Positions 8,836 through 50,711 of a DNA stretch of 64,000 nt are shown here, in pieces. The notes beneath the pieces were generated by a model. It saw only the letters and a list, made by a program, of their open reading frames with translations, was not told the DNA's origin and searched no databases. The DNA is taken from contig CAYHZA010000003.1 in the NCBI GenBank assembly GCA_964361095.1, positions 31,773-95,772 of the forward strand. Reading direction: 5' to 3'. Each line of letters opens with the position of its first letter. Positions within the stretch are counted from its first letter, which is position 1. The position numbers and the translations under genes were made by a program. The DNA comes from an uncultured Candidatus Saccharibacteria bacterium (GTDB lineage: Bacteria > Patescibacteriota > Minisyncoccia > UBA6257 > 2-01-FULL-56-20).

Positions 8836-9282
8836 TCACTCTTCGAACGCGACGGTGATGTCGGAGTCTTCCCTGCCAGGCGAGTGAAAATCGAAGACAT
8901 GGAAAAAACGCAGAACATCGCCTGATTCGAGCGAACAGTGGGTACCGATGTGTTCTTCTACGCCATTCCAACCGATGGCAAAGATCGCACCGTTCCGCAC
9001 GAGGCACGTCTCCATCCCGAGGGAGATTCTCCAGATTTTACCCGCACGCCAGAGATCACCTACATGCCAACTGCCGAGTTTCACAGGAACCTTCCCCTTC
9101 GTGATTCTTTCAACCGCAAGAAGTGGTTTGCCACCGAGCATGAGAACGAGCGGCTGGTTCAGCACCGATGGAGCTTCGATATCCTCCCGAACACGCCTGA
9201 ACAATTTCAGCATTACAACCTCCTCATAAAATTGAATTGTGCTTGCTATTCGCATTAAAAACGAAAACCCACCGAAAAGCAA
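8836..9282 (-). CDS. hypothetical protein (beta-barrel, cupin/dUTPase-like guess)
   Basis: 148-aa ORF; the probable start is the internal MLKLF. Assignment is weak. Confidence 0.3.
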   Translation of the reverse strand: MLFGGFSFLMRIASTIQFYEEVVMLKLFRRVREDIEAPSVLNQPLVLMLGGKPLLAVERITKGKVPVKLGSWHVGDLWRAGKIWRISLGMETCLVRNGAIFAIGWNGVEEHIGTHCSLESGDVLRFFHVFDFHSPGREDSDITVAFEE

Positions 9283-9326
9283 GGAGAAGCTTCAATTTAT
9301 CAGGAAATGGCGCTAAAATTAACTCA

Positions 9327-12104
9327 ATGCCAGAAACTCTCGAACCCCATTACGACCACCTGAAGACCGAAGAAAAAATCTACCGACTCTGGGAAGGGTC
9401 GGGGTACTTTTCACCGGACAAACTTCCGTCAAAGAAAACCGCAAAGCCGTTTACGGTCATGATGCCCCCGCCGAACGCGAACGGCTCACTCCATATCGGA
9501 CATGCGGTGGGCATCACTCTTCAAGACGTTATGGCGCGCTTCGCGCGTATGCGCGGGAAAAAGACTCTTTGGCTTCCCGGCGCCGATCATGCCGGATTTG
9601 AAACACAGGTTGTATTCGATAAAAAACTCGAGAAGGAAGGACGCAACTCCGACGCGTTGCACGGTCGGAGCTCCGACACCGAAGGTCGTCGGAGCCGCTT
9701 CACGATGAGCCGCGAAGAATTATGGAAAGAAATTTGGGACTTTACGCAGACAAATAAAAAAGTGATGGAAAACCAGCTCCGCAAGCTTGGCGCTTCCTGC
9801 GACTGGTCCCGCGAGAAATTCACGCTCGATCCGGACATCATAAAAACCGTCTACGAAACATTCGAGAGGCTCTACAAGGACGGACTCGCCTATCGTGACC
9901 TCCGCGTCGTGAATTGGTGCCCTAAACATCGCACGGCTCTTTCGGACTTGGAGGTAAAATATATTGAACGCGAAGATCCCCTCTATTACATAAAATATGG
10001 ACCACTCACGCTCGCGACCGTCCGACCCGAAACAAAATTCGGGGACACCGCGCTCGCGGTAAATCCGAAAGACAAGCGGTATCAAAAATATATTGGGAAA
10101 GTTATCGAAGCGCGGGGTATTTTGGGACCTTTGAAATTCAAGGTGATTGCAGACGACGCGATAGACCCAAAGTTCGGCACGGGAGTGGTCAAGGTAACTC
10201 CCGCGCACGACCCTCTGGACTTTGAGATTTGGCAACGACACAAGAACGAAATCTCGGGACCAAAAGTTATCATAGACGAATCCGGCCGCTTAACCGGCGA
10301 GGTTGGCGAATTCAAAGGGCTCAAAGTTTCCGAGGCGCGACAAAAAGTTTCGGAAGCAATGGAAAAAATTGGCATCTTGGAAAAAACGGATTCGCACTAC
10401 AAACACCAAGTGGCAACGTGCTACAAGTGCGGAAATATATTAGAACCGCTTCCTAAGCCGCAGTGGTTCATTCGGATGACGGAGAAACCGAGACAAGTAT
10501 CAAGTGACAAGCGTCAAGCTTCAGGAAAGTCGCTTCGCGACCTCGGAATTGATGCTGTAAAGAGCGGAAAAATAAAGATTTATCCGAAAAGAACCGAGAA
10601 GGTATATATGCACTGGCTCAAGAATATCCGCGACTGGAACATCTCGCGGCAGATCGTCTGGGGCATCCGGATTCCGGCGTGGTTTAGAGAAATATCAAAT
10701 ATCAAAGATCAAAGATCAAAGATATGGGACTTGAAAATTTACGATGGAAGGAAAACGTTTGAGGCACTAAAGAACGGTAAAAAACGCGTTGAGACTCGCG
10801 CCGGGAAACCCCAAGGAGCAGAAAAAGACTGGCGAAGTTTTAAGATAGGAGATGTAATTAACTTTTCGCTTGTTGAAGAGGGAACGGAACGCATTTTGTC
10901 TAACGAAGTTATTACGAAAGAAATAGTTTCTATTCACCATTTCCGAACGATTGACGAGTTACTATCAAAATTTGATGTAAATGAAATCCATCCCTATCAT
11001 CCGACCGAATATCGCAGCTGGTGGGAAAGCCGTCCTATCTTTAAAAAACGTATAAAAAAATATGGCATCTGGGCATTTGAACTCCAAGACGTCAATGAAA
11101 AAACTCAAGAAATATATGTCGGCATAGCTCCTCCTTCCGGCGAGGGTTGGGTTCAAGACCCCGACGTCTTCGACACGTGGTTCTCTTCGGGCCAGTGGCC
11201 GTTTGCTACTCTTCTTGCGAACAAGAAGGGTGACACGAGACATGTGACACGAGACATGAGAAGAAAATCAGATTTTGAGGAATTCTATCCAACCGACGTG
11301 ATGGCAACCGGCTACGATATCCTCTTCTTTTGGGTGGCGCGAATGGTGATGCTCGGCCTTTACCGCACCGACAAAGTCCCCTTTAAAAACGTCTATTTGC
11401 ACGGGCTTGTGCGCGACAAGGACCGGCAGAAAATGTCCAAATCAAAAGGGAACGTCGTGGATCCTTTGGGCGTTGCCGAAATGTATGGCGCAGACGCCCT
11501 ACGAATGGCGCTTGTGGTCGGAAACACGCCCGGAAACGACATCGCAATATCCGAAGACAAGATTCGCGGTTATCGAAATTTTGCGACCAAAATCTGGAAT
11601 GCAAGCCGGTTTGTGCTCATGAATCGGCCAAGCAAAATGCCAAAAATCATAAAACTCTCCGCCGAAGACAAAAAAAACATCGCAGGAGTGATAAAAGCGA
11701 AAGCGGCCGTCGCGAAATATATCGAGAAATTTGAATTTCATCTCGCCGCGGAAAAGGCGTACCACTATTTTTGGCACACGTTCGCGGATAAGATCATCGA
11801 AAGCTACAAGCCGCGGCTTCGAGGAGAAGAATTTTTTGCTTCTGGCGCGGCTATGAGGCCGAGCGGGCATGGTTTGCCGCAAAGCGGCGAGAGCGAGGCC
11901 GAATCGCCAGTGAACATCCACGCTAGGGATGTGAACGGTAGCCAAAAACAAAAAATTCTTGCCGACCAGCTTGCCGCTTATCATACCCTTGAAACAATCC
12001 TTCTCGAATCCTTGAAGATGCTCCACCCCTTTATGCCATTCGTAAGCGAAGAAATCTATGGGAAGCTCAACCCCGGGAAACTCCTCATTATCGAGAAGTG
12101 GTAA
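9327..12104 (+). CDS. valS: valine--tRNA ligase carrying an inserted ASCH domain and small GC-rich in-frame inserts
   Basis: HIGH motif (PPPNANGSLHIGHA) and KMSKS motif. Conserved segments RIPAWF and DVFDTWFSSGQWPF flank an insert of about 125 aa. The likely start is MPETLEPHYD at 9327; the ORF track begins at 9237. Confidence 0.9.
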   Translation: MPETLEPHYDHLKTEEKIYRLWEGSGYFSPDKLPSKKTAKPFTVMMPPPNANGSLHIGHAVGITLQDVMARFARMRGKKTLWLPGADHAGFETQVVFDKKLEKEGRNSDALHGRSSDTEGRRSRFTMSREELWKEIWDFTQTNKKVMENQLRKLGASCDWSREKFTLDPDIIKTVYETFERLYKDGLAYRDLRVVNWCPKHRTALSDLEVKYIEREDPLYYIKYGPLTLATVRPETKFGDTALAVNPKDKRYQKYIGKVIEARGILGPLKFKVIADDAIDPKFGTGVVKVTPAHDPLDFEIWQRHKNEISGPKVIIDESGRLTGEVGEFKGLKVSEARQKVSEAMEKIGILEKTDSHYKHQVATCYKCGNILEPLPKPQWFIRMTEKPRQVSSDKRQASGKSLRDLGIDAVKSGKIKIYPKRTEKVYMHWLKNIRDWNISRQIVWGIRIPAWFREISNIKDQRSKIWDLKIYDGRKTFEALKNGKKRVETRAGKPQGAEKDWRSFKIGDVINFSLVEEGTERILSNEVITKEIVSIHHFRTIDELLSKFDVNEIHPYHPTEYRSWWESRPIFKKRIKKYGIWAFELQDVNEKTQEIYVGIAPPSGEGWVQDPDVFDTWFSSGQWPFATLLANKKGDTRHVTRDMRRKSDFEEFYPTDVMATGYDILFFWVARMVMLGLYRTDKVPFKNVYLHGLVRDKDRQKMSKSKGNVVDPLGVAEMYGADALRMALVVGNTPGNDIAISEDKIRGYRNFATKIWNASRFVLMNRPSKMPKIIKLSAEDKKNIAGVIKAKAAVAKYIEKFEFHLAAEKAYHYFWHTFADKIIESYKPRLRGEEFFASGAAMRPSGHGLPQSGESEAESPVNIHARDVNGSQKQKILADQLAAYHTLETILLESLKMLHPFMPFVSEEIYGKLNPGKLLIIEKW
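10725..11093 (+). other. ASCH (YqfB-like, PUA-like) domain inserted in ValRS
   Basis: YDGRKTFEALKNGKKRVETR...FKIGDVINF...WAFELQDV. From memory, this aligns with E. coli YqfB (GRKTITIRDE...FKTGDVLRV...YVIEFKCL), including the GxKxxExR motif. Confidence 0.6.
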
Positions 12105-49700: not shown

Positions 49701-50711
49701 ATGTCAAGTAACTCGCAAACCCCAAAAATCCTCGTGATTCTGGGTCCTACGGCGAGTGGGAAATCCAAACTTGCGGTAGAACTGGCAAAGCAATACAACG
49801 GCGAAATAATCTCCGCGGATTCCCGACAGGTGTATAGGGGGCTGGATATAGGCTCAGGGAAAGTGCCCCGCGACAATTTAAAGATCAAAGATCAAAGATC
49901 AAAATTACAAAGCAAAATTAAAAATAATGGGGAAGGTTATTTTCATGGGGGCATTAAGCACCATCTACTTGATGTCGCAAGCCCTAAGTGGACCTTCACC
50001 GTGACGCAATATCAGAAACTGGCGAGAGCGGCGATCAATAAAATTTTAAAGAAAGGAAAAACGCCCATCATTGTCGGAGGCACGGGATTTTATATTGACG
50101 CGGTGCTCCATGGCTGGGAACTCCCCGCGGTAAAACCGAATCTGATATTGCGCAAAAAACTTGAGAAGCTCTCTCCGGAAAAATTATTTGCGGAACTTAA
50201 AAGGCGCGACCCTCGCCGCGCTCGAACGATTGACCGGCACAACAAGCGCCGGCTCATCCGCGCGCTCGAAATCATAACGGCGACAAAAAATCCCGTGCCG
50301 CCGCTTGCGGAAAGAAATTCTTACTCCAATGTTCTTGAGAACATTGGAGTAAGAACCGGCAAGAATATTTTAAAAATCGGCATACGGCTTCCCGATGAGG
50401 AACTCAAAAAACGCATCCACAATCGCCTTCTCGGCTGGCTTCGAGAGGGGCTTCTTGGGGAAATTAAAAAACTCCGCGCGGAAGGAGTAAGCTGGAAACG
50501 GCTGGACGGTTTCGGATTAGAGTATCGGCAGGCAAGCCGATATCTGCGTCACCTTATTACAAAAACAGAGATGATCGAAAAATCGGAAACCGAAATCCGA
50601 CGCTACGCCAAGCGGCAAATGACATGGTGGAAACGCGACAAAGAAATCGCGTGGCTCAAAAATGAAAAAGAAATCTTTCAAGCAGTGCGGCGATTTGTTG
50701 CTTTATCGTGA
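49701..50711 (+). CDS. miaA: tRNA dimethylallyltransferase with an in-frame insertion of about 25 aa
   Basis: P-loop GPTASGKS and DSRQVYRGLDIGSGK. An insert (NLKIKDQRSKLQSKIKNNGEGYF) precedes the conserved HHLLDV. Confidence 0.85.
   Translation: MSSNSQTPKILVILGPTASGKSKLAVELAKQYNGEIISADSRQVYRGLDIGSGKVPRDNLKIKDQRSKLQSKIKNNGEGYFHGGIKHHLLDVASPKWTFTVTQYQKLARAAINKILKKGKTPIIVGGTGFYIDAVLHGWELPAVKPNLILRKKLEKLSPEKLFAELKRRDPRRARTIDRHNKRRLIRALEIITATKNPVPPLAERNSYSNVLENIGVRTGKNILKIGIRLPDEELKKRIHNRLLGWLREGLLGEIKKLRAEGVSWKRLDGFGLEYRQASRYLRHLITKTEMIEKSETEIRRYAKRQMTWWKRDKEIAWLKNEKEIFQAVRRFVALS

Follow-up and report, generated by a model that had tools for sequence, protein, structure and literature searches.

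An ASCH domain nested in the CP3 hairpin of a Patescibacteria valyl-tRNA synthetase, with a possible activity toward tRNA

What is a complete second protein fold doing inside a valyl-tRNA synthetase (ValRS)? The question is raised by valS on contig CAYHZA010000003.1 (GCA_964361095.1) of an uncultured Candidatus Saccharibacteria bacterium, within the 64,000-nucleotide (nt) stretch of DNA analyzed here, which is referred to as the window. In the encoded protein, 159 amino acids (aa) separate the conserved segments RIPAWF (aa 448 to 453, nt 10668 to 10685) and DVFDTWFSS (aa 613 to 621, nt 11163 to 11189). The corresponding gap is only 20 to 41 aa in 63 of the 120 nearest ValRS, and E. coli ValRS presumably has about 30 aa at this site. 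The best N-terminal stretch matched by ValRS models stops near aa 459, just past RIPAWF. A first-pass annotation of the window had proposed that positions 10672 to 11110 encode an ASCH (YqfB-like) RNA-binding domain rather than an ordinary connective peptide (CP) or zinc-binding region. These bounds bracket the insert correctly as judged from the mapped flanking segments, and the strings quoted for the proposal, GKKRVETR (GxKxxExR), FKIGDVINF, and GIWAFELQDV, are all present. The gene and the parts of the insert are as follows, in coordinates of the window.

9327..12104, + strand: valS, valine--tRNA ligase, the host of the insert; 925 aa, NCBIfam equivalog scores above cut-offs, 100% identical to P0001
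10632..10685, + strand: the CP2-CP3 linker motif and the last conserved residues ahead of the insert, WNISRQIVWGIRIPAWF; recognized by homology, with tRNA contacts from PMC7955072 that presumably carry over to this ValRS
10686..10721, + strand: the N-terminal linker R-EISNIKDQRSK, mostly encoded by a heptanucleotide array and 15 nt longer than in ortholog L001
10722..11090, + strand: the ASCH-fold domain, aa 466 to 588, delimited from an AlphaFold2 model, Foldseek, profile search, phmmer, and substitution rates
10776..10799, + strand: the ASCH octapeptide GKKRVETR (aa 484 to 491; G484, K486, E489, R491), of the GKER type by alignment conservation
10803..10844, + strand: the loop GKPQGAEKDWRSFK, which by the alignment and consensus comparison is an extension peculiar to the clade of ASCH domains embedded in ValRS
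11091..11162, + strand: the C-terminal linker DVNEKT and the residual ancestral CP3 hairpin QEIYVGIAPPSGEGWVQDP, of the zinc-less CP3 type (compare insert-free relatives, e.g., RGEEIFVGEENPPGEGWVQDP)
11163..11189, + strand: DVFDTWFSS, a sequence motif that marks the return to the Rossmann fold (second half)

The segment is an intact Glu-type (GKER) ASCH domain, resembling PH0355 and PF0470, in the tip of the connective peptide 3 (CP3) hairpin of a functional Patescibacteria ValRS. We regard its identity as an ASCH domain and the nested architecture as nearly certain. An exhaustive phmmer search with the insert against 1.84 billion cluster representatives returned 63 homologs at E ≤ 1e-3. In an alignment of 60 family members, the Pfam ASCH family PF04266 matched 40 of the sequences (best 1.2e-9) and DUF3850 matched 12, and a profile built from this alignment gave full-length matches in the PDB to PH0355 (2z0t; 1.8e-21), PF0455 (1s04; 5e-20), and PF0470 (1xne; 2.6e-13). 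With the 60-sequence alignment, AlphaFold2 modelled the domain at a predicted local distance difference test score (pLDDT) of 94.2 and a predicted TM-score (pTM) of 0.86, as a beta-barrel with a helical insertion between the last two strands. The best Foldseek matches to this model in the PDB, through rank 16, were all ASCH-family structures (2z0t, 1xne, 1s04, 5gus/5y6b, 3iuw, 2dp9, and 9kyh), led by 2z0t (E 4.9e-7, TM 0.67/0.78); YTH, EVE, and PUA relatives followed as weaker matches. Free-standing relatives carry the Joint Genome Institute (JGI) label 'ASC-1-like (ASCH) protein'. The proposal of an ASCH-superfamily (PUA-like) domain nested in ValRS was thus borne out by profile searches, the AlphaFold model, and Foldseek. 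The insert by itself, searched with phmmer against the PDB, found one credible match, which runs end to end (PF0470, 1xne; E 2e-4). Its sole direct Pfam match was DUF3850 (E 0.015, 15.9 bits, under the cut-off of 22.9), and a profile scan with PF04266 gave no direct match to it at E ≤ 1. The ASCH assignment was therefore made from transitive profile evidence and structure, without a direct Pfam ASCH match. A word-indexed protein search returned no match to the insert; the same kind of search with the ValRS-embedded alignment returned mostly free-standing proteins.

The YqfB-like part of the proposal did not hold. The sixth octapeptide position is Glu489 and not Thr (Thr24 in YqfB), so the domain is of the GKER type, with the octapeptide GKKRVETR, and not of the Thr type (GKTR) to which YqfB belongs. 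YqfB was also missing from the phmmer and hmmsearch PDB lists, and in Foldseek it appeared at rank 16 (E 5.6e-3, TM 0.51/0.61), after PH0355, PF0470, PF0455, ZmASCH, 3IUW, and TTHA0113.

The residues that define the GKER type are strongly conserved. In an alignment of 11 sequences, comprising ten ValRS-embedded ASCH copies and the free-standing P0123, residues G484, K486, E489, and R491 are invariant in all 11, as are twelve other positions, and among the 60 family members each of the octapeptide residues G, K, E, and R is kept in at least 90%. A loop with the pattern GKPxGAEKDW is specific to the embedded clade, with G35, K38, and W40 nearly invariant, and free-standing relatives lack it. Compared with ortholog L001, the ASCH insert is 86% identical and the ValRS backbone 86.7% identical. 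The ratio of nonsynonymous to synonymous substitution rates (dN/dS) against the same ortholog is 0.10, at dS 0.62, for the ASCH codons and 0.02 for the core catalytic ValRS segment. The embedded ASCH is, to judge from its codons, selectively maintained.

The host gene also appears sound. The ValRS open reading frame (ORF) spans 9237..12104 (+), with the ATG at 9327 as its likely start. The protein scored 790.6 bits against NCBIfam NF004349 (cut-off 704) and 733 against TIGR00422 (cut-off 612.1), and the class I motifs HIGH (aa 56 to 59, nt 9492 to 9503) and KMSKS (aa 702 to 706, nt 11430 to 11444) are intact. The host ValRS is considered functional because the equivalog cut-offs are exceeded and both motifs are intact. 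The same 925-aa protein, at 100% identity, is P0001 from a groundwater metagenome-assembled genome (MAG) labelled Patescibacteria group bacterium at NCBI (GCA_038058695.1), and it was found on at least six contigs, among them separate ENA assemblies of Hainich groundwater samples. An assembly artefact can be excluded because the identical protein recurs on at least six contigs from separate assemblies.

These results bear on the view that the segment is not a real functional feature at all, being instead an ordinary CP3 or zinc region, a neutral insertion in decay, something like an intein, or an artefact of assembly. Such a view could draw on the lack of a direct Pfam ASCH match, on the microsatellites that flank the region, and on the several low-complexity inserts in valS, and it is nevertheless very improbable. 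The 159-aa segment contains no cysteines and has no similarity to a zinc-knuckle CP3; in place of a knuckle it has a confidently modelled ASCH fold with profile E-values down to 1e-21. Also against the view are the dN/dS of 0.10, the orthologous inserts in 12 GTDB species, and the recurrence of the protein in separate assemblies. An intein or other mobile element is not supported, with no intein motifs and no Pfam match of that kind.

A further part of the earlier proposal, that a heptanucleotide microsatellite lies directly at the 5' boundary of the insert, was accurate: AAAGATC is present there in 4.9 copies with 96% matches at 10690 to 10723. This array, (AAATATC)2(AAAGATC)3, encodes the linker SNIKDQRSKI. 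In ortholog L001, which is 86% identical, the linker is 15 nt shorter and there is no array. AAAGATC is also repeated 3.4 times at 49880 to 49903, 39 kb away, in miaA (ORF 49701..50711, + strand; Pfam IPPT), where it encodes KIKDQRSK in a MiaA loop insertion, the same peptide as in the ValRS linker. A 14-mer of the AAAGATC unit is found 5 times in the window, where 0.08 occurrences would be expected. Because L001 lacks the array and the same unit is found in miaA, the array is taken as a lineage-specific expansion of the linker and not as an insertion scar; on the evidence of these sequences it is a genome-wide loop-expanding repeat. Two candidates for a scar were rejected. An exact 8-nt direct repeat, AGAAATAT, at 10688 and 11108 (spacing 420 nt) could have been a target-site duplication. 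It was set aside because chance alone should, by estimate, produce about two such 8-mers in 541 nt and because its 5' copy lies in the array that is missing from L001. A 14-nt pair at 10672 and 11135 (86%) is within chance.

Repeats of this kind are found elsewhere in the gene. Of nine tandem arrays in the window, three fall inside valS. Besides the one just described, these are short arrays (period 14 or 7) at 10492 to 10518 and 11230 to 11258, and they code for the low-complexity inserts KPRQVSSDKRQASG and GDTRHVTRDMRRKS, which are lineage-specific. Where the first of the two would lie, the close relative L014 has (CAAATGG)x4 instead. A 44-aa low-complexity insertion (EEFFASGAAMRPSGHGLPQSGESEAES...) in the anticodon-binding domain (11826 to 11957, aa 834 to 877) is shared with P0006 and missing in most relatives. 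The neighbours of valS, which encode a glyoxalase, a PrsW protease, and an HSP20, offered no functional lead.

The position of the insert provides a first indication of what the domain might act upon. WNISRQIVWG, the equivalent of the class Ia linker motif, is located three residues ahead of RIPAWF. In isoleucyl-tRNA synthetase (IleRS), the stretch after the corresponding 'WNVSRNRYWG' linker is the CP3 subdomain, in which topology is variable and zinc is optional, and the linker contributes to the pocket that receives the tRNA CCA end, where its arginines contact A73, C74, and A76 (PMC7955072). The Arg418/424/426 segment of E. coli leucyl-tRNA synthetase (LeuRS) likewise contacts A73, C74, and A76 of the tRNA (PMC7955072). 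We infer that the insert lies in the CP3 of this class Ia enzyme and that the motif immediately ahead of CP3 grips tRNA A73 to A76. Relative to insert-free proteins with RIPAWF-RGEEIFVG...GEGW, the ASCH domain sits in the tip of the hairpin, with linkers of 11 aa before it and 6 aa after it, and the residual hairpin QEIYVG...GEGW persists downstream. Because CP3 starts right after the gripping motif, these short linkers would be expected to hold the ASCH domain near the acceptor, or CCA, end of the bound tRNA.

One function that would suit this position does not require catalysis. The ASCH domain might be an RNA-binding module, comparable to the PUA domains by which acceptor or 3' ends are held. 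It could strengthen the binding of tRNA-Val or help the CCA end (C74, C75) move between the synthetic site and the editing site, and so make up for a missing C-terminal arm. The coiled-coil arm PF10458 is typical of bacterial ValRS, although not defining, and a Pfam scan found no match to it in this ValRS, which ends inside the anticodon-binding domain. A binding role is also in keeping with the location of CP3 next to the residues that bind A73 to A76, with the basic character of the domain (isoelectric point 9.4), and with the membership of the ASCH fold in the PUA-like group, from which the weaker YTH, EVE, and PUA matches in Foldseek come. However, close relatives that have no insert (696 to 761 aa) also lack the arm, and P0124 carries both ASCH and the arm. 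Sister enzymes fill the same slot with a phosphatase rather than an RNA binder, the strict invariance of the catalytic Lys, Glu, and Arg exceeds what simple binding needs, and some lone ASCH domains have no detectable tRNA binding. We therefore consider a purely RNA-binding module unlikely.

The phosphatase was encountered when the content of the site was surveyed in the 120 nearest ValRS. The 63 short gaps noted above are a zinc-less hairpin or a CxxC...CxxC knuckle: the site is empty in 25 of these enzymes and holds a zinc knuckle in 38. In 33, the histidine phosphatase domain His_Phos_1 is inside the zinc knuckle with its catalytic RHGE...HGG kept, and another 5 have inserts of the same length (198 to 212 aa) without the RHG[EQ] motif. 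The present ASCH type occupies the site in 5, another module of about 150 aa in 5, and a 100-aa module in 2; the site content of the remaining 7 was left unclassified. The phosphatase (PF00300, E down to 3.6e-53) was found in the CP3 zinc knuckle of P0003, P0004, P0009, P0011, and others, with L014 (233 to 3118) as the nucleotide locus for one of them. The second class of inserts, about 150 aa long and also inside the zinc knuckle (P0041, P0047, P0064, P0065, and P0083), has the pattern 'GKTKTYRLR...VGDKVLF', which is reminiscent of ASCH/PUA domains. hhalign gave only 62.8% probability for these inserts against the ASCH family, and neither PDB nor Pfam searches supported a YqfB-like ASCH. The third class, about 100 aa (P0008 and P0034), has an unassigned fold.

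The ASCH module extends well beyond these nearest enzymes. It is present in 7 further representatives of 50%-identity clusters, all of them ValRS by NCBIfam, and a scan of GTDB species genomes with one pattern added 12 more valS genes that carry it, in MAGs labelled Kuenenbacteria, Komeilibacteria, Patescibacteria group, Saccharibacteria, and, with labels that are unverified, other phyla. A 13th locus from that scan, L013 (Paceibacterota), is a free-standing ASCH. More distant ValRS, again identified by NCBIfam, have composite inserts: ASCH followed by His_Phos_1 in P0122 and P0141, His_Phos_1 followed by ASCH in P0124, and tandem ASCH-ASCH in P0125, in which the second copy matches PF04266 at 6e-11. 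The CP3 of Patescibacteria ValRS behaves as a cassette slot that contains ASCH, a histidine phosphatase, both in either order, tandem ASCH, modules of other kinds, or nothing. In a rough neighbor-joining tree without bootstraps the embedded ASCH domains form one clade with the free-standing P0123 nested inside it, and P0141 and P0182 form a second small clade. As far as these sequences reveal, the present ASCH is a member of a clade found almost only inside ValRS.

The backbones of enzymes with different cassettes can be nearly the same. P0002 (locus L001, with ASCH) and P0003 (locus L014, with a zinc knuckle and His_Phos_1) have protein backbones that are 95.3% identical, and the DNA identity between the two loci stops exactly at the RIPAWF codons and resumes at QDPDVF. 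A swap of cassettes by recombination in the conserved flanks is suggested because the DNA similarity of L001 and L014 breaks exactly at these flanks; cassettes thus appear to be exchanged by recombination within RIPAWF and QDPDVFDTWFSS, a mechanism that remains an interpretation of the breakpoints. In P0005 (locus L002, 1030 aa), the phosphatase is in CP3, and an ASCH domain 73% identical to that of the window is in the next surface loop, with junctions on the DTWFSS...TLGFGKKLKP side (DTWFSSGEWPFLTLGFGKKLKP) and at FYPTDV. This is a second insertion site for the ASCH module. Because P0005 keeps ASCH in the neighbouring loop, tethering to this region of ValRS seems to matter more than the exact junction. 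In L012 (1154 to 4981; also P0126) the ValRS is split, the N-terminal half with its ASCH domain ending in a stop codon right after ASCH; a 204-aa ORF rich in Lys and Glu follows, and then the C-terminal half of ValRS.

Some relatives of the present ASCH are long proteins of other types. P0163 (403 aa) carries a metallo-beta-lactamase domain at its N terminus, P0155 (462 aa) has an N-terminal region without another Pfam domain, and P0133 (277 aa) has an N-terminal region that looks GNAT-like by eye and has no NCBIfam match. The gene neighbourhoods of three free-standing ASCH relatives contained nothing related to tRNA.

A site this tolerant invites the explanation that the ASCH domain is an independent housekeeping enzyme that was accommodated in a permissive loop, where it would act on free nucleosides, for example in salvage of N4-acylcytidine to cytidine, uncoupled from the synthetase, with the fusion serving only for co-expression in a streamlined genome. 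The site does accept at least five insert types, tandem domains, and a split of the gene at the ASCH boundary with an intervening ORF. Free-standing relatives, of about 113 aa, are common, one of them (P0123) falls inside the ValRS clade, and ASCH proteins of both the YqfB and the GKER type act on the free N4-acetylcytidine (ac4C) nucleoside. Less easily explained in this way is that every synthetase with the present ASCH clade in the exhaustive search is a ValRS, the other long matches examined being P0163 and P0155. Nor would a passenger be expected to persist in the same enzyme after a shift to the next loop (P0005), to have a conserved clade-specific loop that is missing in free-standing forms, or to be found repeatedly together with His_Phos_1 in one slot in both orders. 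An uncoupled enzyme is accordingly a doubtful explanation.

We favor instead a function directed at tRNA. All 19 of 19 diverse ASCH proteins tested remove ac4C from tRNA, and the YqfB-type and GKER-type proteins also hydrolyse the free ac4C nucleoside (bioRxiv 10.64898/2026.02.27.708502). In the GKER types the Lys and Glu of the octapeptide were found to be essential by mutagenesis, with a catalytic dyad in TthASCH, EOLA1, and TRIP4 (bioRxiv 10.64898/2026.02.27.708502). The archaeal Afu3ASCH domain alone has no detectable tRNA binding, and strong binding comes from a fused helix-turn-helix (HTH) domain; Pku4ASCH is comparable (bioRxiv 10.64898/2026.02.27.708502). The embedded ASCH appears to retain the Lys/Glu catalytic dyad and could be an N4-acylcytidine amidohydrolase, an 'ac4C eraser', or else a reader with a cytidine pocket. 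ValRS would then be its platform for tRNA binding, the role played by the fused HTH in the archaeal ASCH enzymes. A hydrolase or reader is proposed because the dyad is invariant, the domain is under purifying selection, ValRS is the only synthetase in which the exhaustive search found it, and the tethers that place it beside the CCA pocket are short. This ValRS-tethered, tRNA-directed N4-acylcytidine hydrolase or reader function is tentative, and its odds are somewhat unfavorable. For the favored explanation as a whole, in which a nested GKER ASCH domain is an exchangeable cassette with a tRNA-directed hydrolase or reader activity, we estimate a probability of roughly 0.45.

Several considerations weigh against that explanation. 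In bacteria, ac4C is found at position 34 of elongator tRNA-Met, which is far from the acceptor end, and to our knowledge ac4C is not known in tRNA-Val. The 64-kb window is too short to show the presence of an ac4C writer (TmcA or TmcAL). The slot holds a phosphatase in sister enzymes and the gene even splits there (L012), which fits a merely permissive site. The lack of a direct PF04266 match to the insert also counts here. A model of the full-length ValRS from the single sequence reached a pLDDT of only 33.6 and was unusable for placing the ASCH cleft relative to the tRNA or the active site. In addition, the preprint cautions that for some ASCH proteins the hydrolysis of ac4C may be a relic of evolution (bioRxiv 10.64898/2026.02.27.708502).

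A broader possibility is that CP3 is a modular docking slot for enzyme cassettes swapped by recombination, each of which would give ValRS a second tRNA-directed activity beside the CCA-end pocket. This generalization is quite improbable at present. If it is true, the cassettes would constitute a built-in checkpoint for tRNA demodification or end repair that is coupled to charging, and they would be independent evidence, from natural genomes, that tRNA is what ASCH domains act on.

The first-pass annotation had flagged an ASCH domain inside ValRS as not being a described architecture, and full-text searches of open-access papers found no description of one, nor of a ValRS with an internal histidine phosphatase. 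Although each part is known, their combination is new, namely, a nested enzyme domain in CP3 that is swappable among near-identical synthetases. As far as we know, synthetases gain functions mostly through appended domains, and nearly all known cases are eukaryotic and terminal. In the present case the enzyme is bacterial and of class Ia, whole foreign enzyme folds are nested beside the pocket for the tRNA 3' end, and the modules differ between near-identical backbones. ASCH proteins were proposed as erasers of tRNA N4-acetylcytidine only in 2026, and an ASCH-ValRS fusion maintained in many lineages would be the missing genomic-context link to tRNA, as well as a ready test system for that proposal. 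The locus also marks a permissive, splittable site in ValRS that is useful for engineering and shows how ultra-small symbionts pack activities into essential genes.

Among known systems, the archaeal proteins PH0355 (2Z0T), PF0455 (1S04), and PF0470 (1XNE) are the nearest relatives of the embedded domain, both by profile (1.8e-21 to 2.6e-13) and by fold (TM normalised to the target 0.68 to 0.78). Like it, they have the GxKxxExR motif and a helical insertion that precedes the last strand. In contrast to the ASCH domain nested in ValRS, which has the extra GKPxGAEKDW loop, these proteins are free-standing single domains of about 110 aa with no assigned function. The GKER ac4C erasers TthASCH/TTHA0113 (2DP9; Foldseek E 8e-4), EOLA1, and TRIP4-ASCH belong to the same octapeptide subgroup. 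They are free-standing or parts of eukaryotic multidomain proteins, and none is fused to a synthetase, whereas the present ASCH is embedded and its activity is predicted. E. coli YqfB (9KYH), the N4-acetylcytidine amidohydrolase, has the superfamily fold in common with it and binds the cytidine nucleoside in the cleft of the barrel, but YqfB has Thr in the octapeptide (GKTR) and no sequence-level match to the present domain. The archaeal ASCH-HTH fusions Afu3ASCH and Pku4ASCH follow a similar logic, in which a catalytic ASCH with poor tRNA binding of its own is fused to a partner that supplies this binding. Their partner is a C-terminal HTH, whereas here the whole synthetase would serve and ASCH is nested instead of terminal.

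On the synthetase side, the closest counterpart is the class Ia CP3, such as the zinc knuckle in T. thermophilus IleRS and the variable elements in S. aureus, Candida, and yeast IleRS, which are found at the same position after the W-x-[IV]-S-R-x-x-x-W-G linker. These known CP3 elements are structural pieces of 20 to 70 aa; the CP3 described here has a complete foreign enzyme fold of about 125 aa in the tip of its hairpin. NF040702, 'isoleucine--tRNA ligase, N-acetyltransferase domain-containing', which appeared among the NCBIfam matches and was compared by model name, is an earlier example of a class Ia synthetase joined to an enzyme domain of unrelated type, although both the synthetase and the domain are other than those of ASCH-ValRS. 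The most direct comparison is with the sister cassette His_Phos_1 (PF00300), which is found in the same slot and the same ValRS backbone lineage, keeps the catalytic RHGE...HGG, and co-occurs with ASCH in both orders. It has an unrelated fold and is nested in a zinc-knuckle CP3, whereas the ASCH domain of the window is carried by a zinc-less hairpin.

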